Shown piece by piece: positions 5,938 to 46,900 of a DNA stretch of 64,000 nucleotides (positions within the stretch are counted from its first letter, which is position 1; each line of letters begins with the position of its first letter). Under the pieces are notes generated by a model that made no database searches, had not been told where the DNA came from, and was given only the letters and a program-made list of their open reading frames with translations. The translations under genes and the position numbers were made by a program. This stretch comes from Candidatus Omnitrophota bacterium (lineage in GTDB: Bacteria; Omnitrophota; Omnitrophia; Omnitrophales; JACROU01): NCBI GenBank assembly GCA_016214265.1, contig JACROU010000024.1, positions 5,223 to 69,222 of the forward strand, in the 5' to 3' direction.

Positions 5938-6068
5938 TTCATTGCTCCCCGAATGCCCCAATCCTTTGGGTGACTAAGATCCATCTTCAGTTTTCTGTTT
6001 ATCCGTGTTTTTCCACTTGAAATTCCCAGGAATACAATTTCAAAGGAAGAATCAACATGTTGGTGCAA

Positions 6069-6097
6069 ACCTTACCTGCTCACAAAATCGATGTCAA
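6069..6097 (-). promoter_or_regulatory. Candidate promoter for gene A (TTGACA-N17-TAAGGT).
   Basis: On the minus strand, TTGACA is the complement of 6092..6097 and TAAGGT the complement of 6069..6074. It lies in the 240-bp gap between the gene B stop (6176) and the gene A start. Confidence 0.3.
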
Positions 6098-6175
6098 GCG
6101 ATTAGTCGAAAATAGTTGAAAATTCTCAGAAAAATCGTTTATTTTTCATTAAATACTTTTAACAAGCTTGAATTA

Positions 6176-22900: not shown

Positions 22901-25900
22901 ATTCACGACGGCCAGAAATACTTCCACATCATTTCGAATTCCCAGCTGAGAAAAACCATCCATCGTTTTGACGTAATCATCGACAGCTTCGTTAATGAAT
23001 ACGGCGAGAGCGCGCTGTTCTTTCGTTCCCACGTTTTCATCCGCGCGCATAATCACTTCTGTTACACCATTCTGGGAAGTGATGACTTCCTTATAGATAA
23101 CACCGCCTAGCGCTTTCCCCTTGCCGATGAGCGTTTTTTCAATAATTTCCCTGTGCGAACCCACTGCGCTTTTTCTCGCTTCTCTTGATTTGCCGCTATC
23201 CGATAGCGCCTGCCGTTTGGTGTCTCGCTCCGAAACCACCTTTCCGCGTTCTGCTTCAAGCGATGCAGTTACTCGCGCCGGCGGACCACGAGGTGCTTCG
23301 CGTTCGAGAAGGGCGATTTGTTGTCTGATCGTGGTCTCTTTCGCCAAAACTGATTTGAGATCCGACTGAGCCTTGGCGAGTTCTGCTTCCAGTGCCGCCT
23401 CTTGTTCCGGCCCGGCTCGTGTCGGCATGGATTTTTTGAGAGCATCGAGACGTTTCATATCGGCTAAACGGGTAGATTCCAAAACTTTCAGTTCATGGCG
23501 CAATTGAAGCAGTTGTTCGCTTGCTACCCGTGCTGCAGCCTTTTCGGTAGCCTTCGTCGCCTGTGGCACAGCACTTGGAGACAAAACATTTTTAAGTCCC
23601 ATCGTCTGAATAATCGAGGTCGCAAATGAACGCAGACCGATAATGTCTAGCCGCGCTAGTTCTAATGCTTTGGCCTTGGCATCAATTTCATTCGGATCCG
23701 CTTTCTCAGATTTCCTGAGCGCTTCAAGTGCGCTCCGTTGGGCCTCATACCGGCTTTCTTGTTGTGAAATAACCTTGGCCATGATTTCGAGCCACGCTTC
23801 CGCCTGCTTTGCATTGGATCTCAATGATGCATCGGTGAGCAGCTGGCTGATCTCAAAGGCCGTCAGATTTTCGTTGTTGCTAAGTTTTTGCTGAATGGCT
23901 GTTAAAAGCGCTGTTCCTGCAAGTGCAAAAGCTTGAGTCGGCCCTTGAATTTGAGCCGTTTTCAGAACTGCGATTTGCTGATCCGTTTCTCTGACTTGGG
24001 CCTCAAGTGTTTGCGCTTGGGCTTGCACTTCAGCTATCCGGGAATCCATCGCGGCTTTCATTGCGTCTGTTAAAACGTAATCGGGTGAGGCCTTGAGCGT
24101 TTCCAGCTCTTTGGCAAGCTGATCATTTTGAGTCTCGAGCTGGGCGATTCTTCTTTCGTAAGCTGCGCGCGCCGCGGAATCCGTTTCGACTTGAGCCAAT
24201 TTTGAAAGCGATTTTATCCGCATCTGATTAACACCCAATTGGCCTTCCAGGAAACTGGACCTGGTAACATAAGCTGGATTAACGCCACGCCGTAGAGCTT
24301 CTGCCTGAGTGCGTTTTAAATTTGTGAGATTTTCAGTTGCACGGCTAGCCTCCTGACGGGATTGATTGGCTTGGGTGACTAGCTGTCCGATTTTGTCGGC
24401 TCGGGATGACTCTTCGGAAGTCAATTTCTGCTTGGCCGTGACAAGGTATGAATCTGTTTTCACAACCTCTCCGGCCGCGTCGAGGTAATTGATTGAGACT
24501 CGTCCAGCGCTATCAGCCGTTATTTCGGACCGTGCGAGCGATTGAGAGGCATCGGCCTCAATATTCATCACCAGTTTCAGGTTGGTATCATAAACAGCCA
24601 TCTGCTTGTCATTCAGCACGGAAAGTCTTGAAACCAAATTGCCCGTTGCGTTTTGAATAATTATTTCCGATTGATTTTTTCTGGCGGAATCGTTGGTTGA
24701 AATTCTGGTGGTGGTTGAACCATCTGCTGATGCAACAGAGCTGATTTTAAGTCCGTTATGCCCTGCAATCGTCATCAGCACGTTTCCATTAGCATCCTGA
24801 GCCACAAATCCTACGTCGTTTCGCGCCAAACTCATAATCGGCATTGGACGACCCTCGGCATCTTTGACAAGTCCGGTCTGCCCCCCCTGTTTGAATACAT
24901 CCACTCGCAAAATATTTCCTTGCTGATCCATGGTGATGGAATATTCCCCACCTTCGGAGGTAATCACTTTTGCGACAAGATTTCCATTTATGTCTCGCGA
25001 GGTATCCAGTCCGATGATATCGCCTTTCAGCTCAAGCTGGGGAGTCTCTCTGTCACCAAAAGTAGTTCGATTATCTCCACGGTTGATATTGAGCGCTGTG
25101 CCTTCCAGGACAATAGAATGATCTGTCACGATGAGACTGTCTGTTTTATCTACACTCGAACTGAATATAATTGCCGCCGTGCCTTCCATCACTGCGACGG
25201 CAACTTTTCCGCCCTCACGAACTTCTCCTCCCAATTGAGCCATGACGACTTGACCGCGCGCAAGGGCATTCACCAGCAAACGAGGTGAACCCTGATAATT
25301 TTCGAGAATCGAAATCAGAAGCACCTTGTCGATCTTGTTGATATTTTCAGCAAAAAGCCGGAGTGTTTCGGCATCGATTTCGGAGAGATCTCGATTCATA
25401 AATAGACGAGCGACGAGACTCGCGGCATCCGTTGATTCGGAGGCAACTGAGTCCATCAAATTCTCCACGGCTCGTTCATACGCTTCCCTGGCAGTAACCG
25501 CCGCTGGCGCTTCCTTGACAAGGCCTTGCTGTCTTTCAATCATCTGAGAGATTTTAATGGCCAGTGCTTTCGGATCCTTCAAATCCGCTTCGCTGATGTA
25601 GAGAATTTCCTTACTGTTCGAATCAATGCTGTAAGTTCCGGCTCCGATAAATACAGCAACTTCGTTGAGAAGCCCAATTCCGCCAGTCATTTCGAGGGCC
25701 AATTTTATTCCCCGGTCCAACGAATTTTTTACCTGCCCCGCGTCTCCCCGAGTCATCTGCACTTCCGCCCCTTCATTAGTAAGGCTTGCGGTACCGAAGA
25801 GTTCAATCTCAAGCTCGCTTAAAGCGATCAACTCAACGTTTCCGTTCACCAAAGCATCTTCCAGGATGGCCGCTGCAAGCTCCATTTGTCCCTGAAGGAC

Positions 25901-28900
25901 AAGTTCGTCAATAAGCGTGAATACACCGCTCTGGATTTTTAACCCCTCAACAGATCGGGTTGCATCAACACCTTTTGTAATTTTGATGAAGAGATCTTTT
26001 AGGGAGGCGCTGTCTCTGCCCTGCTGATAATTTTGAACTGCCAATTGCGCAAGAACTCGAAGACTTTCAAGATAAGAAGAATTTAGCAAGTTCTGGGCGG
26101 TATCAAATTCAGCGCCGCTGGTGACTTCACGCGACGCCAAATCTGCGTTTAAAGCTTCTGCAGAATTTAAGACATTATCAATCAGTAGCTGAAGCACTGC
26201 ACTGGTATCAAGGTGTGATTTTTCTACTGCCAGTTGAGTCAGCAGTAATCGACTCTCAACCAGAAGTTGTGTATTCACTGCAAGCTCAAGTTGTACGCCG
26301 GTGAGACCGGTACCAGCGGCTTGTGCACGTTCAAAGGATGCAAAAACCTGAGCCGAGGTGACGGTACTTGAAGGAGTTGACACAGCGACAACAGGGACTG
26401 GTACATTATTGTTTTGTGCCCGGAATGTGGCCAAAACAACTTGCTGTGATTCATTGACTAGTCTGAGTAATTGAACAAGGGCCAGGATGTTTTCTTCGGA
26501 CGCTGATTTTTCAAGATTAAGCAGTTTGAGTAAATCATCCAGGCTCAATTTGGTTACAATCACGTTGCCGGCCGCATCCAGACTGATCATTCTTCCCCCG
26601 TCGGGCGTAACGATCAACTCATAAGCTTTCTTGCTATCCAAAAAGCCTTGAATATCGGTGCTGGACGGTTCTCCTGACTCCGGATGATTGTGCGTCAGAA
26701 GTTTTACCTGATCCGAATTTAAAAATGCGGTTAACGCATCAGTGGTTCGAACCTCTTCCGTAGTTCCCGTGGAATAGACGACAAATTTGCCACCCACAAC
26801 AACAATCAGAACCTCGTACCCAAGTTTTTGAATTCTCTCGAGCATCGAGAGAGTGAATGCATTTTCTTCCATCACAAAAGCAACTGGCTTTTGCTGTCCG
26901 GGTTGCGCGTTAAAGTCGAGAGCATCCATGATGGGGCCGAATGCCTTCGTTTGTATGGCTAGATTGAATGTGGAAGTCGTTATTTGTTTAATCTTTGCCT
27001 GCTGCACCGCCGGCATTTGATCGGCTAGCGCCACCATCTGCGCGAAAATCCCCATTTTTTCCAGAATGTTCACCCGGGAATCTTGTAACTTGCTATTTAA
27101 AGCATCGTACTGGGCTAACAAATTCATCATGGTTTCAGCCGTCTTCAGAGATTCTCCCGTCATCGCACTGAGTGCTCTCATATTATCCATGGGCAGAGCG
27201 GCCTGAGAAACTTGAGCGATAATCTCGGGTGTAGCGTCTGTTCGCTGTGCGACTGCTTGCGTCAACGCATCGATACTTGCCATGGCGGATTTCACCTGAA
27301 TTTCGATAGCGGCCAGCGCATCACGCGCAGCTTTCATGACTGTCGGATCCGTGGTCTCGGCGATAATTTTCTGAAGCGCGCCGGCAGCTTCCATTTGAGA
27401 TTGAATTTGCGCGATCAAGGTCTGAATTTGGGTTGATATCGCCACGGCATCAATCGGGTTTGCGGTGTTTTGAACACTGGCGGTAGTGTCCGTCACGGGC
27501 TGCTGGGCATCAGTAATTGCCTGCGTTGTTTGCGGAGCCGCTTGCCTGTCACTCACAATTGTTTCCATCGCCAAAACACGGCTGGTCATTTCCGTGTTTG
27601 TTTGATTGATGTTGGCCGCGGCCGCAACTGAAAGATTTTGCGCAAGAGCGGTGGCAATTTGATTCAATTCTGTGAGTGATTCACGTGCTGCCTGAACTCC
27701 CTTTTGTGCGAGCGCCGGATCGTTCGTTGCTGCGGCGGCATCAAGAAGCATTTGGATTTCCATTTGCAAATCCGCCATGCGCTGAAATTGATTTGCGATT
27801 TGTGTGATAGCGGCCAAATTGGATTCTAGCTGAGAAACTTGTTTTTGAACTTCCTGAACAACCTGTTCGCTGACCACTCCTTTGGCCTGCAATTCCTGAA
27901 GAATGGCGAGCGTCATTTGAGCTGATGCCACAGCATCGCGGGCTGTGGTTTCAAGCGTGCGAGCGCTTTCGAGTTCCGTCGCGTTCTGCGTTCTGGCGGT
28001 TGCCTGGGAGATGGCTCCCGTAGCATCACTCAAACTGCTGACTGCTTGAGATGCCCTCGTTACATTTGCTGCCTGCTCGGCCAGACGTGTTACCACATTT
28101 TGTGCGGCTTCAACCGCTGATTGGGGAACAAATCCTTCCCGGGCCAGCTGTTGAATAGTCGCAAGATTCGCTTCAGCAGATGCGAGGCTTGCTTGGATAT
28201 CGCTAATGATTTGCCCCGCCGCTTGCACGTCAAGATTACTTTGCGCGGTTTGCGCACTTTGTTGTGTCGCGACTGCATTCGCGTCAATTTTTGCAGCAGA
28301 CACGGCGGCTTTCTGGGCTCCAGCGAGTTCTGTTTGTGCCTGTACGGCCGCTTTCGATGTTTGATCGATTTCGGCTTGGGATGCTCCAGCAGCTTTCTGC
28401 ACATCCATCTGCTGAAGCAAATTATTAAGCCCCTGGGTTTTCATCATGACGACGTCCGCAAACGCCTGCGCAGCATCCATACGCTCTTGGTCACCCGACT
28501 CTTGAGCCTCTTGCAGTTGTTTTATCGCGTCATCAATGCTCGCGATCTGAGCATCAATCGCGGCATTACGTGCCGCGGCATCTTTTTGCGCCTGAGTCCT
28601 CATATCTTGTGTCGCTGTGGTGACTGTGCCGTCGGACTGTTGAGTGGCCGTGACTTGCTGACTGTCTGTGGTAGTTACGGTAACCACCTCGTTACCTGAA
28701 CTATTCGTCGCGACTTCAATATTGGCAGCCGTGCCTGCCTGAGTCATAACCACATTACCGTTTGAATCCAACAATTTGATTTGCGACTCTTGCCCAAACT
28801 GATTTTGAGACTCAATCACCGTGTTTCCACCGTCGGTTTGTGTGACCGTGAATTGAGCGCCCGTGGTCAATGTGTACGTGGTTTGCGTTCCTCCATCCAC

Positions 28901-31900
28901 TTGGGTTGTGACAGGAACTCCGGACACAGTACCATCAAGAGACACAACAGTTTGTCCCACATCACTCGTGAGTGTTGTCGAGCTTGTTGTTTTCGTAGTT
29001 ATTTGAGTGATAGTTCCCGCATCCGTTCGAGTAACAACAACGGATTGGTTGCCTGACATCTGAACGATAAAGATTTGCCCCTCCTCAATCGATGAAACGG
29101 ACGTGACGGTTCCGCTAGTCTGAGCAATAAGATTTCCATCTGAATCTCTAATTTTAGTGGTATTCAATGTGCCATACACGTTTGTCTGCTGAATTACCGT
29201 TTGGCCCGAGGGGGCTTCGGTTACCACAAAACTGGTGCCAGTATCTGTCTTATAAGTAATCTGCTGATTTCCAGATGCATCGGTGGTTACAGGTGAGGCA
29301 CTCGTAATTTCCTGAGTTGTTGCCAAAATTACAACTCCTTCGGTATTCGTCACGGTTGTCTGCACATTACCAACTTTGTCGGTTTCCTTCACAATGACAT
29401 TACCGGCCATATCCGTTGCTGAAGTAACAGTCGAATCAGTAAATGCGACTGTAATCTGAGTTCCTCCAAACGGACTTGGCGAAGAAACAATTGAAGCCGC
29501 TGAATCGGTTACAATGTCGGCAACCGTTCCCTGCGACGAGGTGACAACGGTTGTCGTACTTCCGTCAGTTTGTGTTGTTTGAACTATCGTAAAACCGTTT
29601 GGTGAAGTGGTAACGCTCGTCACAGCGCCAGCATCCGAAGTAATGGTTAGCACGGTATTGCCATTCTGATCCGTGCTCGAAGTAACATTTTGAACTACTC
29701 CGTCAATCTGGCTGATTTCGCTTCCTTTTAGATCATAAACTTGCGTGGATGATTCCGCACCTTTTGTCATCGTCAGCGTCGTAAGCGAATTTGTGGAGGA
29801 AAGAGTCACGGTCTGCCCCGTAGTCATGGCGAGTGAAACATTAATTTCGCCATTTGCTCCCAAGTTCGCAGAAGCGGAAATCGGGGATCCCTCCTGCACA
29901 CCTAACGTGTTTCCATAAACATCTTTGAATGTTGTTTGTGCCGTTCCGTTCGCATCTTGCGTTGTAGTTACTGTTCCCATCAATTTCGTTGCAGAATAAA
30001 GAGTTCTTTCGGATGTCGTTGTGCCCGTTTCTGCGTTAAATTTGATCACAAATTTTGTTCCATCTGCCAGCGTGAATGTTGTGGCCTCCGCCGTTACCGT
30101 CGGAGACGGTGTGGAAGTCGCAATCTCACCCACAACGACGTTATTGGGACTTGTGACAGTGTGCGGACTTTTTACACCGTCGGCAGTTTCACGCGATGTA
30201 AGCAGCGTTCCATTGTTGAGCTGATAGACGACGACTTTGGACTTATCACCAAGCGTGTAGGTTGAAAGAACGCCGCTTTCCGTTGTTTCGGTTGCAATGA
30301 ATCCAACATAAGTGGACTCAGCCATGACAATTTTTCCGCCGGCCGACTCAATTTCCGAACTAACATTCCGGTTCGCGTCCGTTGTCTGCCTCAGTATCTG
30401 CCCACCGGGCAGCTGTTCAATTTCAAGGATGCTATCTTTCACCGCAATCGTAATCAGCCCGTCCTCGGAAACTGACAAGGTCGTCACCGATCCGGCAACA
30501 GGCTTTGACAAAGCCCTGCCTTGTGCGTTTTCCACCGTAGTCGTAGTTGTTGTTCCCTTCGTCGTACTGATAATTGCATCACCTGCAAAGCTTCTGCTTA
30601 TAGAAACAGTACCTGCGGAATCTGTTTCAATTGTGGTCGTTGTCAGACGTGTTTCAGGACTGTAGCTCTGACGAACCGCGGTTACAGCGCCTTGAGTTGA
30701 GGTCAGAAATTTTCCGGTAGCATCGAATACACGAGACTCAGCTGCGGCTCCGCTTCCCTTGGCAACAACGATGGTTCCGTTGGGGGCCTGTTTAATTGTG
30801 GTTGTGACACCGCCCTGAATCTGAATAGTGGTTACGTCATTGCCATCGGCATCTTTGCTGATTGCCGGCGCATCGATTGTTCCGGAAATTTCTGTGATTT
30901 TTTGACCCGACGCGGTGAACACTTGGGTTTGAACACCTGCTATTTTTGATGTCTTTGTCACAATATCTGTTTTTTGAGCGTTGTGTGTACTCGTAATTAC
31001 ATCACCATTCACAAGCGTAACCGTTAGTTTTCCAGATGCGTCTTCCTTCGCAGATTCAACCGCGCTATCGCTTGTAAAAATTTCCGCCTGGCTTGAGCTG
31101 TAAATTGTTGTTCGAACCGGCTGTCCCGCTGTTTGGATTTCCGCAACTGTTTGCAGTGAAGTTCCTTGAATTAATTTTACGCGTATTCCATTGGCAAAAG
31201 TAATGATCGAAGTAACAGTGCCTTCAGCATCCGTGCCCGATTCGCTCGACACCACGTCGCTTGGAACCGTAGCAATAATGATTCCGGAACTCGTTTGAAT
31301 GACGCTTGCGGATTTTTCTGCAGATTTCCGGGTCATAACGGAAACTTGCTGTGACGTGCCCGGATTAAGACGTGATGTTGTTAGCACGGAACCGTCAGGC
31401 ATTGTTTGAGATTCCGATGACGTCGAGCCTTGAGGAGCTGCTCCCAAATCGGTGAGATTATTTACCCCACCAAGAACCGCGCTCAGAAAATTTTGAAGGA
31501 GTTGATTCTCTACATTCGCCTGCACTCCGGCGGCAGCTTGTGTTGTGGCTTGAGATACAACCGCTTGTGTTTCGCTCACTCGCTGCGTTTCGACTGCACC
31601 TACAAGATTGCCACGGACATTGTTAAATGTATCCTTTGCCAGATAAGCGGCAAGATCTTGTTGAATAGCCTCATTGGTTCTAGGCACCAAAGTGGGCAGA
31701 ACTTCCTCAAAAGAAATATCGTATTTCCTTTCTTCTACAGGAATTAGCGTGCTTAATTGCGTTCTCAATTTTTCTTGATCTGCTTCGCTGAGGCTTGAAA
31801 TCAGAACTGTCCAATTCTTAGACAAGATTTCTAAAGCTAATCCTTGAGGCAAACCATTAAAAGCGCCCGCTTCATTAACGGTCATTTTTACCAGCACACC

Positions 31901-34900
31901 TGCAATCATATTTTTTGCTTCGAGATTCAGAGATTCAAGAAGTCCTGAAATTTCCGAACCAAGGGCTGAGAATGCGGCTGTCTGCTGGGCTCCGCTTTGT
32001 TGAAGCATCAGAGCAAAAGAGGCTGCAAATTGATTTTGTACTTCCATTGACTCGCTTAAGTTTGACGCAATCGACTTTAAATTGTCGGAAAGAATGTAGA
32101 TGGCGAATTCGGCCGCTTTCGGATTTTCTTTGTTCAGCGCCTGAAAAGTAAGTCCTTCAATGAACGATTGTTTGTCAGCCAAATCCATGCCTGCCAACAC
32201 TTGAGAAAGCTGATCGTGCAGTCCAATCGAAAGGCCGTCCCGAAAAGCGGTGTCACTCTCCGCGCTTGAAATTTGGCCCATGAGCCCTTCGAGAAAAGCC
32301 AGCCGTTCTTTGGAAGTAGCAGCAATTTGAGGAAGCAAAGTGCCGAGTTTTCCGGAAATGACAATGCCGAGTATGCGACGTCGTCCCTCGTCTTCTGGCG
32401 CAGTCTTTTTACTGCTTTCGATTACGAGATTAATAAAATTTTTCAGCTTCTCGGCCTGAGTTGCTCCTGGGACCTCTGGTGACATCAAATCGGGATGATC
32501 CAGTAATATGGCAATCATCCCCGCTTGTGTTTCTACAGGATTTGCTGAAGAGCTATCGAACGCCATCTGATGCGCGATGCGAATCACAGCGGCTTTATTT
32601 TCCACGCCCAAAGCGTCTTGAATATTATTTAAATTGGAAAGCAATGACGAAACAATAATTCCTGCTAAAGCAGGATTATTGGTGTCCTGAGCCAGGCCCA
32701 TCAAATAACCCACAACCTCATCTCTTTTGGTTGTGTCTGTGGCGGCAAGAGAATTGAGCATGGCGGGAAGATTGGTATTGATAGCATGCATAATGGCCGA
32801 TTTAGTTTCATTGCTTATATTTGCATCACTAACCATTCCCACGAGCTGTTTAAATAAGTCTATAGCCTGAGCACCTGCCGCCTGTCCGCTCAAGGTTTGC
32901 GTGACGATTCCCCAGTTTTTAACTAATATTCCGATCAAAGCGCTTTGAACTTCCGGGCGTGCTTGCGGATTCAATCCCAAAGCAAGTAGATTATTGATCA
33001 AATTCACTCTATCACTGGCATTGTCGAGCGATGCGAGAATCACCGGCAAATTCTCACCTACGGCTTGTGCGATTTGGAGCGCCTGATCCACTGTAGCGGG
33101 ATTAGACAAAGCGTCGGGTGAAGAGAGAAAATTCAGAAAAGTTGAAAAGAGCAGTATCGCTTGCACCGAGGAAGCATTGCCTTTAATCTGCCCGATCAAA
33201 TTAATATTTTGTCCTAGTGCCAGAACTGTGGCCGTCCTGACCTCAGGTCTCGTCGCCGTGCTTTGTGCTATCGACATCAGATGATTCACAAGTGCCGTCT
33301 GACGCGCGGAATCGAGATTTGCGAGCTGTGAAATACCACTTGTGATGAGCGCAGTGGTTGTCTGTGAATCCAAATCTCCCTGTTTAATGAGGGCAAGAAT
33401 TTGATCGGCCACAACTCCGTCTTCCGCACCTTTGATACTTCCTGTAATATGAGTAAGAACCAGAATGGCGTTTTGGCGAACTGTGTCGTTGGAGTCCGAG
33501 AATAAAGGCCCAAGCGAATTAAAAACTGCAAAAGCTTCCTCGCTTGTTAACAAGGAACGAATACCGAGAATTGCTTCCTGGGCCGCCACGGAAGTTTCAC
33601 CGGATTTCATTGCTTTGATAACGGTGTTCAAGGCCTGGGCACGGGCCTCTCCTGTCATATTCGGAAACACTCCGCTTAGGGCACCAAGTGAGGCATTGAC
33701 AATCTCCGGTGAAGAACTGTTTAAACCCTCAAGAATCGCATGAATCACAGCTTGCCGTGTTTCTTCCGCCATGGAAGCGATGTTTGTCGATAAAGAACCC
33801 ATAATTAACACTTGGAGGTTGTTTTTTTCCGAAAAATTTTCAGATATTTTTAGCGCATTTAACGCTGCTAAAGCGCTTTGAGTATTCACCGCACCTACTG
33901 CAAGGTTTTGTAATGACAGATGGTCTGTATTCACCCCGGCGGATTTTAATTGTGCTTTCAATTGATTTAGATTTTGAAGCACCGTCACCACATTGTTTGC
34001 ATTGAGACCAAGTTTATCTGCCATAATTGCGATATCTGGAAGTGAAAACTCTACGGCAGAAATATTCGGTAAACTTTCGCGTAAAGACATAGCGGCTTTA
34101 TATATTTCCCCGATCACACCCGTCGTATAGTCCGAAGTGTCTAGAAATCCATAAGCTTGAAGCTGGGCAATTCCTGCCAGATTCAGTCCCGCAGCATTAG
34201 GGTTGATTCCCTGTTTCTCAAAATAATTTCGCGCAACACTGAGCTGGCTTAATACTGCCTGAGCGCCAACCAGATTTTGTCCGAATCCGTTGCTCTCGAA
34301 TTGAAGAATATCCTGAACTGAAAACTCCGGAAGATTAACGGTATAACCCAAAGCCGCTCTCATTTGCACGGTGGACTGAATCAGATTGCGCGCCGTGGGA
34401 CTCATGCTTGCGGATGAGAGTGAATCAAGGTTTACCGCTTCGCCGCGAGCGGCACTATTCACCATTGAAGTTGCCACCGCCGCCTGAACCAAGGCGGAAG
34501 CATTTTCAGTGGACAATTTGACATTTCCGTTATGCGCTGCGTCGATCACCAACAAAATGGCATGATCCAAAACCGTAGGATGATTTTGCTCAAGGGATAT
34601 GAGCGTGGCAAAAGCAGAAGGATCAATAAGCTGTCTCAGAGTTTCCAATGCATCCGATTTCAGGCCTTCAAGGACCGGCAGGTTGAATTCTTTATTAACC
34701 TTGATATCGGCCTCGCTGAAGGTGAATCCTCCATCAGGAAGTTTGATATTGGGCAAAGTTTCCCCAGCGCGCTGAGCAACGAGAGCGGTGCGCATGGCCT
34801 GCAAACTATTGATAAGATTCTGGTGATGCTCAGCCTGACCTTCTCCACCTCCGGAGATAGCTTCGGCAATGTAGGTATCAGCGAACTCCTTGGCTGTGTT

Positions 34901-37900
34901 TTCATCAATTCCCATCCATTTGTGAAGCACATAGGTACCGAAGAAATCGCCGGCGAGTTCCTCAACAAAAGCTTCATCGATTACGCCGCCGACTTGCTGA
35001 CCGACAAATTGCCCCAATTTTGAGGCGAAATTCTGGCTGATTCTTCCTCCCAGCTTGGTGGATAATCTCCCCATCCAATCTCCGGTACTTTCACCGGCCT
35101 TATTGATTCGGACCCAAGAGTTCCAAATGCCTCCGATTCCTGTAGTCGTTTGTTTACCAGATGAGTCAGCCGTAACTCCTAGAGTATCAAGGGTCCTTGT
35201 TACCATTCTTACGGAAGATCCCATCGAAACGGAAAATCCAACCTGGCTTTGAACGCTTTTCAATAAATTCATCCCAAATGTGCCTGCGGCGGCTGTAAAT
35301 CCTGTTCCCATCGCGGCTCTTTCAGCGGCAGACATGCCAACATCAAAAGTCTGTCTGAAGAATTGTACAAACGGCTGCTCTTTAATGCCATTTAAAATGG
35401 CCCGGCCCCAAGATTCCTCCCCTCCTTTGAACAAAGTTCCGAGCAAATTTTTTCCGCCGGTTTTTATGGCGTCCCAGGTAACACTTGCTGTTCCTTTTAA
35501 TCCGGACAAAAGTGCAGAACCCAGCCCAGTGGTTCTATAAATGCTTAGGGCATCATTGAGCACAGTGCCGAGACGGCCCAAAAGTCCAACCTTGCTGGCC
35601 GCCTGCTTTGATACCATTTTAGCCAGTGTCGACCCGACGGCGCTCATGCCTTTTGTGCCAATTGCGCTGGCAACACTGCCGACAATCACAGCTACATCGG
35701 CCAGAAATGGTATCCACGATTTTTCGCCTTTCTTCACATTGAAGTTGCCAAGCGAACCTGTGGATTCCAATGCTGGAATCAAAAGTCCCGCAACAAGTCC
35801 AAGGGCAGGACCGCCAACAATGGATAAAGCGGCTAAGGAAGCATAAGTTGCTGTTTGAGCCACTTGATATCCTGCAGAAATGGCCGTATAGATCCCGCCT
35901 TTTTTTGCCGCATAGTCGTAAATGAGTGCGGCACCATCCTTTTGATTCTGTACAAATGTCTCATCAGTTAAAAGTTGGTATGCTTGACCGGCAAGAGTAT
36001 AGTTCTTGATAAAACTTCCAATGGGAGAATCCGCAATGTAATTGAATGCTTTTCCCGCAACATTGGTAATTCCGCCCCATGCTGTAGAGAGAGCGCTTCC
36101 TACTGTTGATACAACGCTACCGATTGATTGACCCATAAACGAAAATGTATCTTTGACGAATTGCCATGCGCCTGTTTGACCTGTTGAAGTCATCTGTGCC
36201 TGCTGTGTCTTCGGGACTGGCGCAAATTCAATTCCGCGAAGCTGAACAGTATTCGTTATTGTAGTAGTATCATTGGCAAATTCCCGGCCGGCAGCATCAA
36301 AACCGTTCTGAGCCGCATTGAACCAATAATTAAGCGTCGAATGAAACCAATTAGTTTCTTTTTCCGTTACAGATTCGGTTAACTCTGTATTTTGGAAAAT
36401 TTCACTAGTAAGATTGGCGTCACCGCCGCCATATTTTTTTAGAGCTATGCCCTTTGCTTGTGTCAGGTCAGTAACAACTCGATTTTGGTCATCCTTTATA
36501 ATATTCCCGTCCGGTCCTCGATATAAGGTTATTGGTTCTCCAACAGATTTTTCTCTTCTGTAATTTTTTCTAACGCCGTCCATATCTATCGTATAGGTGC
36601 CGAGCTTAAACCTGCCATATTCGTCAATCACAGTTCTGGGCTGCTGAATGTTTCCGTTCTTGTCTCTGAAAGCGGTGCTGATATCAGTAAATCCAGTAAA
36701 ATTACCGGCCTCATCTTTCAAGCGGATATTTCTGTAAGGGAGTCCATCAGCGCCAAACCCCATGGTTCCAACGTTAACGAGCTCACCTTTTGGGTTGGTG
36801 TCAAAGAAGTTATATCCCAAAGAACCATCAGGTTTTTTAGAAACAACTGCCGCCGAGCCCACTATGGATGAGGAACTTTCACCGACGAGATTGCGTATAG
36901 CGCCGCCTGCACCACTCGGATCATTGCTTACGATTACGATGCGTAGTGCATTATCATCCAAAGGCGGAGTGAAATATAACTTGCCATCTACTACAATACG
37001 AACGGCAACTTCCTTCATTGCGCCCGATACATCAGCTGCAAAAACGCGGGTAGTGTTTATCTCTGTAATTTGTGGTTTACCGCCGATATTTGCTTCAACC
37101 AGTTTTTTGTCAACTTGTAACCTTGTGTGTTGCACCTGCCCCTTATCGTCGGTCCTATCTATACTAACTTCAGTTCCAATAGGTCCCTCAATGGTTCCGT
37201 TGTCATTAAGAATAGCGCCCGATTTTGTGAACCGCACGACTGTATTCTCGCCTAACTTAACGGGCTGCGAAATGTCTATAGCGCTAATTCCGCGCGATGA
37301 TCTGATGGAATTATTTGCTTTGTCTTCAATCGTTCCGTTTTTCACGACATTGTCAATGACAACTACACCGCCCCGATAAATCACCCCCTTTTGATCTGTA
37401 AATCCATCCTGCACATCCATGCGTGTTTTACCGTCAACAGTAATCGATGTTGTCTGCTCCTTCCCTGTGCTATCCTTTTGCGTAATAGATCCTTTAGTCA
37501 AAACATTATTTTCCATAATTGATCCTGCTGCCAAAGTGGTCCGGCCCTCATTGTCTAGGCTGATGTCTTGAAGTGCTTTGATCGTAATAACTTTTCCATC
37601 AACAATGACCTGTTCCTGCTTCTCTGAGCGAAGCGTACCGGTAATCTTCTGCTTTCCATCAGAATCAATAAATATAACGGTTCCTGCAATGAGGATGGAG
37701 CCATCCCTATCATTCATGGCCATGTCTGTCTGAAGTTTCTGGATTCCGAACTGTTTGCCGTCAGCACCGATCTGATACGTAGTCACAGAGGCAATAACTG
37801 GTTTTCCATCTGCTCCCAAGACTATATTGCCCGTGAGCGGATCAGTTTTGTATTGATTGATAATCATCGTTCCATTCACAACTTTTGGTTGCCCATCTTT

Positions 37901-40900
37901 CGGAATTTCCACCGAAGAACCGGCTGGAATAACCATTCCATTACTCAGATCAATTTCATTATTACCTGCGATAAAAGTTGTCCCGCTCAGCCTCACAATC
38001 ATGGTGTTTCCCGTGGTAGTATCAAAAACCTCGCCCGTTACCAATTGACCGTTCTCCAAAACAGATCCTTGTTTGTATACCCTCCCCTCAATAATCACCG
38101 TTTTTGCGTTAATAATGGTACGATCAATCGCTGCACCGTCTGCCCCAACAGTGATTTGCCGGGTAATACCACGCGCATGATCAATCATGGTACCCGCCAC
38201 CTGCTCCATATTCCCCTCAGAATCGATATAGGCAACAAAGTCTGTTCCATATTCCTGAAGCAAATTTCCGGTTTTGTCACGATTGCCCGCACCTGGTTGC
38301 GTGACCGAAAGTTTCGTGCGCGCTTTTCCTGTGGCAGAATCGACTTCTTTTGTGTAAAGAAGATGCGTGACAATATTTTCATAGGATCCGTTTATGATCA
38401 CCAGACTACCATCTTCGCCAATACGAATTTTTGACCCAGCCTTGATAATCAAAATGCCGTGATTTGTATCGGTTCCAGCCGGACTCGAGATGTCTTCTCC
38501 GATTTTGACACCATTTGAGTCGAGTACTGCCTCACGTATCTGGCGAGTTGTGCGGTTATAAATCGACCCCTTCACCAGCTCAATACCTTCCGTCACTTCA
38601 ATCTTGGTCCCCGCCTCGCGCGCCACTTCGCTGCCGGCCAGCACGGCATATTTTTTCGCGGCTTCTTTGTACTCGCGTCCTTTTTGCGCGATGTCGATGA
38701 CGCCTGTTTTTACATTTTCCACTTTTCCGGAAATGAGTGTTCCGTTCAGCATCAACGTGCCTTCCGTGAACACATTCCGTGCCTTCCCCATCGAATCATA
38801 TTTCGTAGCTTGATCTTGCAAGGCGCGGGTGACGGATTCCATTTTCCCAGTCTTCAGATCTTTCATCACGGTTTCCTGGAATTGCTCGGTAATGCGGGTT
38901 TGTCCCAAAAAGCCACCCTTGTCCGTGTAATAATTAAATTGCTCGCGAAGCGGATCTTTATCCTTCTCACTACGCATATTCGTTCTGGTGTAGGTCTCGC
39001 GCATTTCTTTGCCGAATTTTTCGGTAAGTGACATGGTTTCAAACGCCTGTTGTTTGCCGTTCCGGGTGACAATTTCAGTTTTGTGCGTTTCAGTGGCCAG
39101 CACCTCGCCTTTATGGCCGACGACTTTTTTAGTGACATCCCCTTCTTTCGAAACCGTCAGCACATCAATTTCGTTCTTGAAATTGAAACGATTTTTGTAA
39201 GTAACACGGTCTCCATTTTCGCTCATAGTGGTATAAGATTTTTTAATGGCCTCAAGCTGTTTGTCGGTGGCAAATGATGGATCGCTGGCCTGGACCTTTT
39301 TCCACGACTCCGTCATTTCCTTGGCGGATTGAAAGAACTTATAGGCTTCGTAATCACCGTTAATCTGACCGGCGTCTGTTTTCTTCCGGTCATAAACACC
39401 CTCCAGGAATTTCATTTGAGACGCAATGGCGCCCTTATTATTTTCAAAATCTTTTTTGGTTTGATTCCCGTTGATGGCAAAAAGCGCTTTGTTCAAGTCC
39501 AGATTGATATTTTCGATACGGGAATACATCGCCTCGTTTCCGGTTTTAAGATTGATATTTAACCGGCGGAAATTATCGGCGATACCCTGATCCAGCCTGC
39601 CGGCATTTTTGACAATCAATTGATTATTGAAATCGAGTGCAAGGTTTTCACGCGTGGGTGCATTGGCCAGTTCATTGAGCCCAGCTACATTAGCGCCGTC
39701 GTAGACATTTCTCAGGTTCTTCCGGACAATTCCATCGGCTTTCTCTGTTTCCTGCAATGCCTCATTTTCTGCAATCCGCTTTTGCTTGAGCCCGGCCAGC
39801 TCATTCTTTTTATCTGTGATTTGCTTATTCAAATTGGCGATGGTGTCCATTTGTGTCTGGGTTACAGGATCGAGGGCATGCAGCAGATCCGATTTTTCTT
39901 TTCCAAGTTCAGCAATCTGTTTTTGAGTCTTTGTAATTTCGTCTTTTAACGTCTTGATTTCGTCCGGAATACTAAGGACAAGATTCATTCTGACCTTCAT
40001 TTCCCGGTCAAGATCATCATTTTTGGCTTTGAATGCGGTGATATTGTTGGTTATTTCCTTCGACTGTTTGAGAGATTCGGGATCCGTCTTTCCGGCAAGC
40101 GCCGCTTTCGCCGTTTCCAGCTTTTCAATTTCAGCAAGGTTGACATCTTTCATTTTTTGTTTTTCGCCAATTTCCTTGGGCAGGCGCACATTCATATCAT
40201 TTTCTTTAATTTTAATAGAATTTTCGTTACTCTTAATTGAAGCGTTCGCGTCACTGATGCGTGTATTGACTTCCTTTAGTCTGGCACCGCCCGCTTCCCG
40301 CATAAGACCGGATTCAAGCTCCTCGTTGGCCGTTTTGATTTTAAGTTCAAGAACACCAATGGCTCTTTCAGCTGCGGCGATTTGAGGTTCTATCTTATCC
40401 AGCGTATCCGTCCCTCTCCCTCCGTATAAGGTTTCCAATTTCTGAAGAAATTTCTGTTCTTCAAGGAATCCGCCACCGACGCCAATGCGGCCGGAATCAG
40501 CGTACTGAAAATTGTAGGAACCTTGACCAGAGAATTGGCCATTTAATCTCATGGTATTCAAATTGCCTCTCAGCTTTTCAATATTCGCCGTTTTTTGCTG
40601 CTCCAACGTTTTCACATCCGCTTTCAATGTATCCCGTTGGGCTTTCAAATCAGTTAGATCTGTCTGAATTGTAGTCAGATTTGTTTTTAACTTTTCAATA
40701 TCCCTGCCAATTGAATCTCGAATTTCTCTGTATTCGGCTATCAAGGCCTGTCGGTCCTGTTCTGTTCCAACATAAGCATCACCGGCGGCGATAAGTTCAT
40801 CAATACCTTTTTGCCAATGGCTGATTTCTTTTTGGTACTGGGGAATATCGGTATCCACCCTTCTCTGCGCTTCTTTGAGATCGGCTTCCTTTTGGGGCAG

Positions 40901-43900
40901 TTTCAAATAGATTTTGTTTATTTCTGCCTGTTTTTCGTTGATGGCTTTCACATCAATTTCCAAATCACCGGAACGAATATCGGTTTTGTTCGTATACACA
41001 TCCGTAACAGGCGTCGCACTGTAATAAGGGGCTCTGGCTTCAAGTACAGGCTTATTGTCATAAACGCTTGTATTTGCCGTGATGAGCCCATCTCGATCCT
41101 TGGCCATCGCATCACCGAGCGTCTGGAAAGTCCCCCAATTCATAGTAGGATTTGCTAGATACAGCCCCCGCTTTTCAGCAGGAATATCTCTCCACACATT
41201 CCAGGATAACTCGGTTCGATAAACCGGCTGTTGATAGCTGTCCCATGTTCCGTCACTTTTTTTGTAAGTGATCGTATCGTACGAGGCAATCAAAGCCTTG
41301 CTGGTAGAGCTCGCCGGTGGAGTCTGCCAAAGGGGCGCTGAATTTGCCTGCGTTAATTGATTGGTATCAGCCGCCGAATCGACAGCGGCTTTTAATTTGG
41401 CGATAGTGGCCAAATTCAAATCCATAATATTTTTCTCGTAATTTTGTGAGGCCGCTTTTAATTTCATCAAAATGCCGCTTTTCTCCCCATCCTGATAGTA
41501 CTGATAATTCATGTAGGCAACTTTGAGATTGGATTGATCTGCTGGTGATGCGGAATAGGACCAAATCTGACCGGCAACGACCTTGTCATAATAAGTCTTG
41601 GCCAACGCCAGAAGATCTACGCCATCCGTTGCAGGCCGTTGAGATTCCGGAAGCACTTGAACGAACGCCAATATCGCTTTTTTTAATCGTTCTTCGGATA
41701 ACTGCTTGCCTTTTGTAAAATCAGCTCCCGACTTGGTCCCAATCAACTGACGTTCGTAATATTGCGTTGCCAGCTGCTCACGGTCGTTGATGGAATGATA
41801 AATATTCCGGATTTTATCGACAGCTGAAGAATAGCCGCCATATCCAGTTTGCAGGGAATTTTTGGCGTTTTGAAATGCCGCGTTGTTTTGCTGCATAAAT
41901 CCGTTAAGCGCGTTGGCCACACCTGTTTCAGCATTCTTTCGCTGATCGCGGTATCCCACCAAACGGCCTTTAAGATCTGCAATTTGACGGCGTAGTGTAA
42001 CGGCTTCGGTTGTTGTCTGATCAGTCATAGCATCCAACTGCGCTTTCAAAGTCGTGATTTTGCTATTGGCGGCGCTTTTTTGCTCATCATAGTAAGCAAT
42101 TTTATTTTCCAGATTTCTCCTTTCCATAGAAGTGGTGGCGCTATTCAGCTGTTGTTTCAGTTTGTCTGTGTTGTATCCCTCCAGATCCATTTCGAACTTA
42201 TCCTTAGCTTCTTTTTGAGCTGCCTTAAGGCCATCCTTTGCATTTGTAAGGGCATCGGCGTGTGTTTTGACCATATCTTTTTCGAAAGTCATCCAGCCAT
42301 TCATTTCATTGGAATATGTTGCATGAATCACGTTTTGCTGGGCGATGTATTCATCACTGGCATTTTTCACGGCGGCGTTATACGCAGATTCATCTCCGGT
42401 TTTTAGACGTGCCTCTTTAGCCGCGTAGAGAGCTTTTTTGTACACGTCCTCGGCCAGCTTCAAATCAGTATTTTTCTTGTTTTCTGTTGCCTCACGGCCA
42501 TCACTTAATTTCTTTTTTTCGGCAAGCAACGTTGTTTTGGCAGAACCCTGGAATTTAGCCTGCTCTTCCGCAGTCATTTCTCTGCCTTCTTTGTCTGCTT
42601 TTTCTTTCACAGATTTATCGCCAATGACTGCCAGAAATGCATCTTTCGCAGACTGCGTTGCTGTCTTGAACTCCTTAAACGCCTTATCAATGCGTTCGTT
42701 GGAAACCATCAATTCGTCGTTGTAAAGATCAATAAGTTTTGCCAGGGCATTTTTCTCACCTGACTGCATGTATTGAACATCGTTGAATGTGAATGAGAGG
42801 GTGGCCAATTTACTGTTAAGATCAAAATCACTTAGAGCAGAATTCCAGGGTTTAAGAACACCCTTAAAAATTTCTTCGGGATAAAAATCCAGTCTATCCA
42901 TCAGCCCGGCTTTTTCCCAACCTGCTGGAGGCGGGGCATTAGGCCGGCCATAAACATAAGCCATTTCGGGAGGATCAGGCTGTATGCTGGATAATGGGCG
43001 AGTTGTCTGGGCGGTAGTGTATTTATCATTGACATTTTTTAATTCATCGGTTGAAAAAAGCTTCATATAGTTCGAGTCAGCCAGCCTGCCCATAGCACCT
43101 TCATAGGTATAATATTTTGTGCCTGCAGCATCCACCAGCTTCGCTTCAATCTCGACATCACTTTTTTCTGGAAATTTCTGTTTTAAAAGTGCTTTTCTCT
43201 CATCAAGCGTTTTAGAGGTTGCATACAGCAAATCATTGCTTTCTTTGTCCGCTTTCATGACAAACTTGCCGTCAAAATACCCTTTGAGATTTTCGTAAGA
43301 AGGAAACGACTGCGCAATTAACTCTGCTGTGTTCTTGGTTGGGTCCCAATTGAATCCCCAACCGCCGCTATCAGGAAACAGTTTTTTGAGTTCATAATCT
43401 TTTACCTGCGGATCCACAGCCGGATCTGCCATCAATTTGAGAAAATTTTCTTCGGTGGCCGAATTACGGAACCATTCCCTTAGCCGTTCCGTTTGCGTCT
43501 GATCGCCAACCATGGCTTCGATTATTTTCATATCTTTATCGGGATAGATCGATTTCAGAAAATCTTTCTGTTCATCAGTTCCGCGATAATGCCTTTGGGC
43601 GACTTTGTACAATAGTTCTGATGGAGAAGTAACCTGCACATCTTTAAGCGAGGTCCCTAAAATCGAAAAGCTGTTCCAGGGATCTCCACCCTGCTGTTTG
43701 AGATATGCAGATGTTTCTTTATCCATACCTAATGTCTTGACCACTGTCTGTCCTCCCGACAAGCCTTCCAGTTTCCAGTTAAAAACATCGGCGTTGGTAT
43801 AATCATAGATATATTGTTTAACTAACTCACTTCTTAAGTTCTCAACATCCTTAATGTAATCAGCGCTATTTTTCCCGTCGATTTGCAGTGGTGAAAATGA

Positions 43901-46900
43901 AGAGCCATACCCTCCTGTGAATTGCCCTGCCATTCCTGGATCATAGCCAAAAGCCCCCGTTTCAAAATAAGCTGACCTTGAGGGTGTCGTAAGATCAAGC
44001 GAATAAGTCTTGGTGGCAGAATTATATTTAAAGAAGTCGCGAATTTTAAATTCCATTGGGTCTAATCCCATCGGATTATTAAAATTTTTCTCCTCGCTAC
44101 GAACAAAATCTGTGAGCCGGTTCATGTATTCAAAGCGGTTGCCAGTCAAAGAACCGTAAGCATTACTCAGATAATCATTGAGAGCGTTAATATTATTTTT
44201 AAGCTGGGAAATATAGATCTCGGAATTTTTCTGAAGCTCTGAACTCGAATCCAGATATTGGCCAAAAATTGCCGGGGCCAGGCGCGTGTTTTCAGGCAAA
44301 GAGGGGTCATAATCCGCCAGCATCATAAGCCCATTATTCGATTTGACCTGCGACGGGTCCACGGAATAAAGGAACTGTCTGCCGATATTTTCACGCCACT
44401 CCTGGATCTGGCGCATCTTCATATCGAAATACGAGTCGGCAGAATCCAGATAATCATCTGTGGCGTCGCTAACTTCCTCCTCAAGCTTCTGCTCCAATTT
44501 TTGATCAACAACCAATTTTGCATCAAGCGCCAGCGCCACATCGCTGCGATATTTATTTGAGATATCATTCCAGGCTGTTTCCAGATCGATTTCCATTTGC
44601 TTGGTTTCGTCATAAGCTTTTTCTTTGCTTGCATCCCGGATTCCTCTGGCATTCCCTACGGATTTATCATAAGCATCTATTGCCTCGCGAACTCCAGCAG
44701 CAGTATTCAGCGCGGCGGAATCATTTTTAAACGTTAGAAGCAACGTTCTAAAAGCAGCAACTTCGGGATTTTCCTTACCATCCGCGTCCATGCCGGTCAT
44801 TGCGTCCGGTGAAATGTCCTGAGCGGCAAATTGGCGGGCGTATTGATCCAGATACAGGGTGCGATCCGGTGAAGCCATAGCTTCGGCAAAATCTTTCAAC
44901 GAGACGGCGGATATATCTCCGGCCTTTTGGATAAAGTCGGACAAGATTTTTTGAAGTTGATCATAAAATTGCGGTACAGCCTGATCCCGAATTTGACGGG
45001 CCTGAGCCTCGGCTTGAGCGAACTGTTTATCAGCAGCGTCAAGCTGTGAATCACGAATCCAGTCAATTTCGATTTTTTTATCGACGTAACTTCTCCGATC
45101 GGTCAGGTTTTGTAGTAGAAGCGCTTTTCGTTCACCCGTGTAGGTATTTGTCGTTTTATCTCGCCCATCCTCGTATTTAGTAATAACGTCATCAAGATTA
45201 TCATCCGGATTCTTACGTACGTCGGTGTACTGCTCCTGAATATGCTTCTCATTTTCATCATATTTTGTATCCGCATAGGCCATCTTGTCGCCTGAGGCAA
45301 TTGGACCGGCAGTTTTTTCGATCTGCGCTTTCTCCGCGGGCGTAAACTTCCCGAGATTTTGATAATAGTCATCCCAGTTTTTCAAGATCCCCGCTTCATC
45401 CGTTTTGATTTCAGCTAAAGCGGCATCCATCTGACTTTTAATTGAATTGGCGTTAGCCTCAATAATATTGACGAATTTATCGGGGTTATTGGCGTCGTAA
45501 ACGTAGGTTTCCCCAAATTTTCTGAGAGCGGATACGGAATTATCATAAATTTGAGTCGCCTGGTCCCAATACTTCTGAATCGGCCCATTAGGACCTTCGC
45601 GATTATTGAGCATTTCTGTCTGCGTGTCGTACTGCCAGTCGGAAACATTTTTAATGTAGGCGTTTTGAATCTTCTTCAGTTTCTCTTCAAATTGTGCCGC
45701 GTCAAATTTGTCAACGATGCTCTTCGCATTAGGCTGAAGCGTTGTCCAGGTGGTGGTTTGACTGTTGATGTTGTCAGGCTCAGTTGCATTTTTTGCTGTC
45801 CCATATATGTATTGAGCGGCATACAAAAGATTTCCGATGTTTACTTCGTCCAATTGACCGCTCGGCGCGACTGTTTGACCGATATAACCGCCGATTTTCC
45901 CTTGCCAGCTTCCCTCAGTTGTGCTGGTTCTTTCATAAGAAAACGGCTGCCCATACGAATCAACCCCGGAAACCATTTCCTTTTTCCATACCCAAGTCCA
46001 ATCACTGCGACGGGTATCAGCCGTGCTATTAATAAATGCCGCTATTTCATCGTAGAGACCTTTCAAATTCCCTGAAAATTCGGTTTTCAACTCCTGAAAT
46101 TTTACATCCTTTTGAGCGACATAATTTTCCAGTTTAGTCATTTCAGTCTTGTAGACTTCCAGATTTTTTTTGTCTTTAAGAAAATCGGTTTCCTTGATTT
46201 CGATTTTATTTTTGTTCAGTTTGATAAGCGGGTCAGTATCGAGAATGGGCGGCATTGGCAGCTGTGTTGTCTGTGCGGTCTTTATATTACCCGCGGCATC
46301 CATTTCATCAATTTCCATCAGCATGCCTGCATTGTCGTATATGTATTTAAACGTGGAACCATTTTCAAAGGAAACACGGGAAACATTTCCCTGGTCATCA
46401 TAATATTCCGTCGAAAATGGAATACTTTCCCCCGTAACCGAAGTTCTGGCAGGATGCTCAACATAAGCTACTTTTCCATCGATAAGAGTTTGCGTGCTTT
46501 TCACACCGTCATAGCTGGTTATGTTGATGCTGGTCACAATGCCATTCGTGTAGGTATAACTGTATGTCCCGACATTGGGGATCACGACCGTCGCCAGGGT
46601 ACCATCACTGTTGAAGGTTTCCTTATAACCATCGGCATTGTTGACCGTGTTGGTGGTTTCATTGGCTTTGCGAAGCCCATTAAGATATTCATAAACCTCT
46701 TCATACAAATCCACGACGTTCTTCAGAGCATCATAGGCTTGTTTTTTCATAAAATATTGCTGTTCTGCAACGGCTAGACCGGCAATGGCGCTATCGCGCG
46801 TACTCGTATCCACTGCCGTTTTGTAACGCTCAATCGCCTGATCGTAAGCGGTCCGGGTCAATGTGTATTCAATTTCAGCGGCGTGAAGTTCCGCCCATAG

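Follow-up and report, generated by a model that had tools for sequence, protein, structure and literature searches.

What role does an uncharged, glycine-rich segment play at the centre of a protein of 14,531 residues? The question is raised by a stretch of DNA of 64,000 nucleotides from a Candidatus Omnitrophota bacterium (contig JACROU010000024.1, positions 5,223 to 69,222 of the forward strand; hereafter the window), in which a giant open reading frame (ORF) lies on the minus strand (13970..57565; the coordinates of all parts of this ORF below refer to that strand). It is a single uninterrupted frame of 43.6 kb with no in-frame stop, the sole ORF of this kind in the window, and its product contains no cysteine. 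An earlier note on this DNA had flagged bases 34900–35910, which encode residues 7219–7556 at almost exactly the midpoint of the protein, as a unique hydrophobic block of 340 residues, and had proposed either a membrane-inserting region of the toxin type or an anchor in the cell envelope. The anchor is the better supported of these two alternatives, given a signal-peptide-like segment at the N-terminus, an internal segment with a negative predicted insertion energy, a switch in composition at the block and published precedents. On balance, we lean towards reading the block as a short group of membrane-spanning helices, inserted co-translationally, that would anchor the giant protein at its midpoint.

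Composition delimits the feature as a Gly/Ser-rich, acid-poor block covering residues ∼7130–7530 (34976..36178); relative to the flagged range it is displaced ∼90 residues upstream. Compared with the whole protein, the block is rich in glycine (14.7% versus 6.7%; ∼59 of 401 residues where ∼27 are expected), serine (9.7% versus 6.8%) and tryptophan (2.0% versus 0.6%), while aspartate and glutamate together fall from 13.3% to 5.2% (∼21 residues against ∼53 expected), giving the least acidic 300-residue windows of the protein. The description of the block as Gly/Ala-rich is borne out for glycine but not for alanine (11.2% versus 9.9%), which is not enriched. The top combined glycine and alanine content is found elsewhere, at residues ∼9650–9850, in a polar Ala/Gln coiled-coil-like stretch that is unlike the block. 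The longest uncharged run of the protein spans residues 7223–7266 (44 residues), and another of the only four such runs of at least 30 residues lies at 7140–7171. Motifs of the form small-xxx-small-xxx-small are likewise at their maximum here, with 13 per 200 residues against a mean of 2.7. The long uncharged stretches and small-residue zipper spacing that had been described are both present, and the two strings quoted as examples, GGPALGLVAGLLIPAL (residues 7251–7266) and VAVIVGSVASAIGTKGMSAVG (residues 7291–7311), each occur once.

Hydropathy singles out a much smaller part of the block. Across all 14,531 residues, 19-residue windows with a Kyte–Doolittle mean of at least 1.6 occur only at residues 7241–7267 (maximum 2.08) and 7283–7304 (1.93), so that the block is unique in this respect, as claimed. 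Its hydrophobic extent was overestimated: the part of transmembrane (TM) grade amounts to only ∼70 residues (7238–7307), with the remainder of the block mildly polar, and although the top 100-residue windows of the protein begin at residues 7251 and 7201, the best mean over 100 residues is just +0.58. Summed values of the Hessa biological scale rank residues 7245–7263 first, the signal segment second, and segments at 7284, 7417 and 7148 third to fifth, while a scan in the style of TopPred with the Goldman–Engelman–Steitz (GES) scale places 7244–7264 first (1.82) and 7147–7167 second (1.54). We also re-implemented the position-dependent Hessa/von Heijne predictor of the insertion free energy (ΔG); its values are approximate, with poly-Leu at −7.5 and poly-Ala at +1.5 as sanity checks, and the scan listed segments below 2.5. 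Just two segments of the entire protein have a ΔG below zero, residues 20–47 (−0.16) and 7238–7266 (−0.62).

The second of these segments is helix 1 (TATYASLAALSIVGGPALGLVAGLLIPAL; 35768..35854), the strongest TM candidate, which exceeds the protein's own signal peptide in hydrophobicity on every scale applied and contains a GxxxGxxxG glycine zipper at residue 7252. A connecting loop (residues 7267–7283, ESTGSLGNFNVKKGEKS; 35717..35767) with three lysines and two glutamates leads to helix 2 (residues 7284–7307, WIPFLADVAVIVGSVASAIGTKGM; 35645..35716), which is conserved, has an embedded aspartate and is only marginally hydrophobic (ΔG +2.25). Upstream, a weak candidate, helix 'a' (residues 7147–7167, SIGSVVSTVGSALSTAWGGIT; 36065..36127), falls within the 32-residue uncharged run and has the GES score given above; it is not among the segments listed by the ΔG scan below its threshold. 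Helix 2 is followed by a basic, Gly-rich stretch (residues 7305–7415; 35321..35653) that is predicted to be helical with low confidence. The charge map shows five lysines or arginines and no acidic residue from Lys7305 to Arg7331, directly after helix 2, and by the positive-inside rule this would place the C-terminal flank of helix 2 in the cytoplasm. Cationic amphipathic helices resembling antimicrobial peptides were considered for the region after helix 2 and dropped, being unsupported by the Eisenberg hydrophobic-moment test.

An AlphaFold2 model of the block, calculated from a two-sequence alignment, has an unusable confidence (pLDDT 33.4). It is all-helical and free of β-structure, where the earlier note had named a soluble β-solenoid or a lack of helices as the contrary outcome. 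At this low confidence it shows a helix over residues ∼7225–7267 that is kinked at a Gly-Gly-Pro sequence, a loop at 7268–7283 and a further helix from 7284; the only use that we make of it is to note that nothing in it indicates a β-solenoid. A reading of the block as a repeat array was dropped. Its internal-repeat score of 49 does not stand out from that of shuffles (42 ± 7), no tandem DNA repeat is present, and the block matches no other part of the giant protein and none of the neighbouring proteins.

Conservation was assessed with a single relative. An HMMER search with residues 6800–7999, exhaustive over 1.84 billion representative proteins, gave one match (E = 4.6e-46) to MBI4398669.1 (P0001 below), a partial hypothetical protein of 2,885 residues that fills an 8.8-kb contig of a Candidatus Omnitrophota metagenome-assembled genome (MAG) from groundwater. 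The two proteins align by blastp with 27% identity over 920 columns (E = 6e-73). The conserved region is a helical domain that includes the HEAT-like repeats (residues 7419–8211; 32933..35311), and a weaker alignment continues to residue ∼9360. P0001 presents the same order of parts, with a YD-like β region, then one segment with a ΔG below zero (residues 701–728, −0.21), then the conserved helical domain. Helix 2 pairs with residues 709–736 of P0001 in an alignment that is colinear with the match that follows, and the aspartate is kept in D(V/I)A(V/L)I(V/A)GS (D-x-A-x-I-x-G-S; z = 3.9 versus shuffles). MAFFT instead paired the TM helix of P0001 with residue ∼7360 of the giant protein; this pairing was dropped as the shuffle-controlled local alignment favours helix 2. 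P0001 has nothing that corresponds to helix 1, and the hairpin as such is therefore not conserved. A second, weaker hydrophobic segment of P0001 (residues 849–867, Kyte–Doolittle 1.66) lies inside an insertion relative to the giant protein. The best-conserved motif in both alignments (A1 and A2) is acidic and is found ∼215 residues after helix 2 (residues 7520–7576; 34838..35008); it reads GQQ..G..DEAF.EE.AG ... EFAD.YIAEAIS.GGEG and matches no known family. In L001, the frame of P0001 runs on 5′ of the annotated start (positions 1–170) as YD-repeat-like sequence broken by two stops; this could be a piece of a longer gene that was misassembled, or else a pseudogene.

Other searches returned little. 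Word-indexed homology searches with residues 7100–7620, 6600–8199 and 11480–12400 gave zero matches, and locus searches with the block gave nothing in genome, viral and metagenome collections, with no related viral contig in the viral collections; when these were repeated with the two-sequence alignment A2, only the known Omnitrophota contig was recovered. With Pfam, NCBIfam, PHROGs and PADLOC, neither the block nor the C-terminal half gave a significant match. Sequence (phmmer) and two-sequence profile searches of the PDB gave only spurious matches to the block (E > 0.003) and nothing for the conserved domain, the ATPase-motif region or the C-terminus. A Gly-rich TM segment of a phage tape-measure protein or tail lysin was considered and rejected, the sole match being a non-significant one to phrog_1047 (E = 0.047, 12.7 bits). 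Judged by these searches, the block with its flanks is nearly an orphan, a sequence family new to the searched databases with one relative.

The architecture of the giant protein changes at the block. The chain opens with a signal-peptide-like segment (residues 20–47, LYLKKIIAAGTAFTFLFTQVNILSAYSL; 57425..57508; GES score 1.39), and the N-terminal half contains an RHS/YD-repeat region (residues ∼1200–3760; 46286..53968), matched by PF05593 RHS_repeat in four overlapping pieces with 24.6–55.6 bits against a cut-off of 22. Beta-rich sequence with 3.8% tyrosine extends right up to the N-terminal side of the block. On its C-terminal side tyrosine drops to 1.4%, and HEAT-like repeats, coiled-coil-like stretches and P-loop/DEAD motifs appear; the HEAT-like repeats lie around residues 8014–8110, where HEAT scores 24.1 bits against a cut-off of 23.5 and Adaptin_N matches weakly. 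By its sequence the block is the boundary between a predicted β-rich RHS/YD half and a predicted α-helical half.

A helicase-like module had also been proposed on the C-terminal side of the block, and this is upheld at the level of motifs but not at that of families. A set of P-loop motifs of superfamily 2 (SF2) type occupies residues 11562–12214 (20924..22882), with a Walker A motif (FHLIPAGTGKTAVIF, residues 11562–11576), an hhDEAD Walker B motif (TIYDEAD, residues 11722–11729) and a motif-V-like GATRGVDV (residues 12207–12214). Only 0.25% of shuffles contain a Walker A/DEAD pair at helicase-like spacing. Even so, the region matches no helicase or SecA family by name in Pfam, NCBIfam, PADLOC, the PDB or among homologues; SecA_DEAD (PF07517) in particular gives no Pfam match downstream of the TM region even at E ≤ 1 and no PDB match at E ≤ 10. 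The AlphaFold2 model of residues 11525–12300 is unusable (pLDDT 41.8), and its Foldseek TM-scores to PDB entries (<0.12) are meaningless. If the region is an ATPase, it would be an extremely divergent one.

An anchor at the midpoint suggests the following course of events. The N-terminal signal peptide would take the β-rich RHS/YD half (residues ∼50–7130) through Sec across the cytoplasmic membrane. On emerging, the hydrophobic cluster would act as a stop-transfer sequence and remain in the membrane of the producing cell, so that the giant protein would be tethered at its midpoint. The glycine zipper of helix 1 and the conserved Asp-bearing helix 2 could then pack together or with copies from other chains. 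The side on which the C-terminal half lies would follow from the number of spans. An odd number (helix 1 by itself, or a, 1 and 2 together) would keep the C-terminal half in the cytoplasm and so give its Walker A and DEAD motifs access to ATP; with an even number (helices 1 and 2 as a hairpin), both halves would lie outside. One or three spans suit the ATPase motifs and the positive-inside flank, whereas two spans suit the absence of cysteine from both halves and the extracellular placing of HEAT repeats in the preprint on giant Omnitrophota proteins (10.1101/2023.11.21.568195). We find an odd number somewhat the easier to accept. P0001 weakly constrains the parity, as it has one strong segment and possibly a second weak one.

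Several points weigh against such an anchor. All TM calls derive from hydropathy scales, one of which is our own approximate re-implementation. Helix 1 holds the Gly-Gly-Pro sequence and a second proline and is absent from the sole homologue, while helix 2 bears an aspartate and is just marginal in hydrophobicity. The parity of the spans varies among plausible models, which makes the side of the C-terminal half a guess. The lack of cysteine in both halves would be easier to understand if the same constraint, such as export, acted on both, and the HEAT repeats of such giants have been assigned to predicted extracellular regions (10.1101/2023.11.21.568195). For the C-terminal half, an ATPase is suggested at the motif level only.

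The same helices could instead serve another cell's membrane. The exported giant protein would meet a prey or neighbouring cell, and the helix pair would enter the target membrane and form a pore or conduit for adjoining parts of the chain (such as the region with the ATPase motifs, or the HExxH domains near the C-terminus), as in TcdA/TcdB, the diphtheria T domain or the colicin hairpins. The likeness to these toxins consists of a central, uncharged, small-residue-rich pair of helices in a large protein of secreted type with cargo-like domains beside it; moreover, helix 1 has a GxxxGxxxG zipper, and glycine zippers are frequent in helices that form channels. The absence of cysteine from all 14,531 residues is as expected of a polypeptide that travels unfolded, the RHS repeats and the pair of HExxH motifs near the C-terminus (where Aspzincin_M35 matches weakly, E = 0.0023) recall the layout of polymorphic toxins, and the sole relative is from Omnitrophota, a phylum that has been called predatory (10.1101/2023.11.21.568195). 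Yet neither sequence nor profile searches linked the block to a toxin translocation domain, be it in the PDB or in Pfam, where zero families match the block and the models searched include those for TcdA/TcdB, for diphtheria T and for colicins; and no autoprotease or receptor-binding module of these toxins was detected in the giant protein. The loop between the helices is not short and acid-tipped but has three lysines, which is unfavourable to spontaneous insertion of a hairpin, and the hairpin is not conserved, P0001 being without helix 1. Nor does the block have strongly amphipathic helices: in the amphipathicity analysis that had been suggested for it, no window crosses the Eisenberg 'surface-seeking' line. 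Rhs/YD polymorphic toxins, namely the Rhs effectors of type VI secretion systems and the TcB–TcC cocoons, share with the giant protein the RHS repeats and possibly a C-terminal metallopeptidase-like motif. They differ in that no DPxGL-type autoproteolysis motif (DP.G[LWMIV], searched in the whole protein) and no PAAR, VgrG or prePAAR domain was found here; the helices lie mid-protein rather than N-terminally, ∼3,400 residues past the last RHS repeat detected by Pfam (residue ∼3750), and ∼7,000 residues extend beyond the block, far above what a cocoon could enclose. The proposed toxin-like pore is thus unsupported by these comparisons, and we regard insertion into a target membrane after secretion as unlikely.

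It is also conceivable that the block never meets a membrane. Both helices would then be packed inside a soluble, Gly-rich helical domain linking the RHS half with the HEAT-like domain, and the low charge would reflect flexible Gly/Ser linkers. Helices with similar scores that are probably buried do occur in the HEAT-like domain, both in the giant protein (residues 8131–8149, ΔG 2.41) and in P0001 (residues 1579–1597, Kyte–Doolittle 1.86), the Gly-Gly-Pro sequence in helix 1 is helix-breaking, and the authors of 10.1101/2023.11.21.568195 themselves call TM prediction unreliable for giant proteins. This is hard to square with a helix 1 that tops the signal peptide in hydrophobicity on all scales, with a 44-residue uncharged run that is unique in 14,531 residues, and with the segment of negative ΔG that P0001 keeps at the same architectural position; we consider a soluble linker improbable. 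The hydrophobic stretch might also be a random fluctuation in the composition of a very long ORF, or the ORF might not be one real gene; 14.5 thousand residues do offer many windows, while a single homologue makes for thin evidence of conservation. However, a 43.6-kb frame without a stop cannot be due to chance, the enrichment of glycine and the depletion of acidic residues each lie many standard deviations from the protein mean, and the hydrophobic helix and the next domain are kept in an independent genome with 27–32% identity. An artefact of this kind is accordingly very hard to believe in.

An anchored giant protein has published counterparts. Giant Omnitrophota proteins combine RHS-like β-helices with HEAT repeats (West-Roberts et al., 2023; 10.1101/2023.11.21.568195), and they carry TM regions, behind which divergent SecA-type DEAD domains often lie (10.1101/2023.11.21.568195). 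A class with 'signal peptide + TM' (SP+TM) makes up 38.9% of 916 long Omnitrophota proteins, and proteins of at least 10,000 residues have a median of 16 TM helices (10.64898/2026.06.07.730766). The protein described here resembles the SP+TM giants in its ORF of more than 10,000 residues, its signal-peptide-like N-terminus and its internal helices of TM grade, with the reservation that the class was defined in the literature by DeepTMHMM, whereas residues 20–47 and 7238–7266 were called here by hydropathy and re-implemented ΔG scales. It also shares with them the RHS-like β regions, the HEAT repeats and the DEAD-type P-loop motifs downstream of the TM region, and its only relative is a protein from an Omnitrophota MAG. 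In contrast to their median of 16 helices, it has one tight cluster of one to four candidate helices at the midpoint; its ATPase motifs do not adjoin this cluster but lie ∼4,300 residues beyond it; and it has no Pfam match to SecA_DEAD (common but not universal in the class), C39, dockerin or TSP3. The combination of a signal peptide, internal TM helices, RHS-like and HEAT regions and DEAD-type motifs is an architecture that has already been described, as have TM anchors in such giants, so that the block alone adds no new principle. Bacterial proteins of more than 10,000 residues are almost wholly uncharacterized, and it is membrane topology that sorts their many domains into those working within the cell and those working outside it. 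With one compact group of candidate TM helices at its midpoint in place of dozens along the chain, this protein is an unusually simple case in its class and would be a tractable model for the threading and anchoring of a very long polypeptide.

A more far-reaching version would make the protein a one-chain machine across the envelope, in which the midpoint helices join a cytoplasmic half of 7,000 residues with a divergent SF2/SecA-like ATPase to an extracellular RHS-type filament of 7,000 residues, and in which ATP hydrolysis would be coupled, mechanically or by secretion, to a prey-directed surface structure. In a variant the helices would enter the prey membrane and the ATPase-bearing half would be delivered there. 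We view this proposal as a long shot.

Other properties of the giant protein deserve mention. Its frame contains no cysteine codon, whereas the two remaining frames of this DNA have 260 and 690, and the Omnitrophota homologue of 2,885 residues is likewise without any cysteine. This pattern points to strong selection against cysteine along the entire chain. The word 'cysteine' is absent from the main text of the two preprints on giant proteins (10.1101/2023.11.21.568195 and 10.64898/2026.06.07.730766). Only three regions of the protein are internally repeated, and the most extensive of them (residues 8868–9639; 28649..30964) is built of β-rich units with ∼29–36% mutual identity that are weakly kept in the homologue and have no Pfam match. 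Near the C-terminus, residues 13942–14192 (14990..15742) contain two HExxH motifs, HELTH and HESTH. The Aspzincin_M35 match in this region is below threshold (18.8 bits against a cut-off of 30), and these motifs may mark metallopeptidase-like end domains.

Three further large proteins are encoded on the same (minus) strand to either side of the giant gene, at 1–5973 (>1,991 residues), 6176–12034 (1,952 residues) and 57771–63410 (1,879 residues). All three begin with signal-peptide-like N-termini that have similar hydrophobic cores (FTFLFTQV, VFVFTQV and LISFLAQQ), although by blastp none of them resembles the giant protein or another of the three. The leftmost (1–5973) contains Big_13 and RHS repeats, and the other two have no Pfam match. 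The few cysteines of the proteins at 1–5973 and 57771–63410 are confined to the N-terminal signal region. The 1,952-residue protein has strongly hydrophobic, Cys-containing internal segments at residues 699–727 (ΔG −3.65) and 1310–1332 (ΔG −0.36), and on its predicted segments is another protein of this gene cluster with a signal peptide and internal TM helices. A gene for an AAA_14/DUF4143 ATPase (12216–13658) is located among the genes for the large proteins. ARAGORN calls a tRNA-Pro(TGG) of 90 nucleotides on the plus strand (58846–58935), antisense within the ORF of the 1,879-residue protein, which is probably a false positive.

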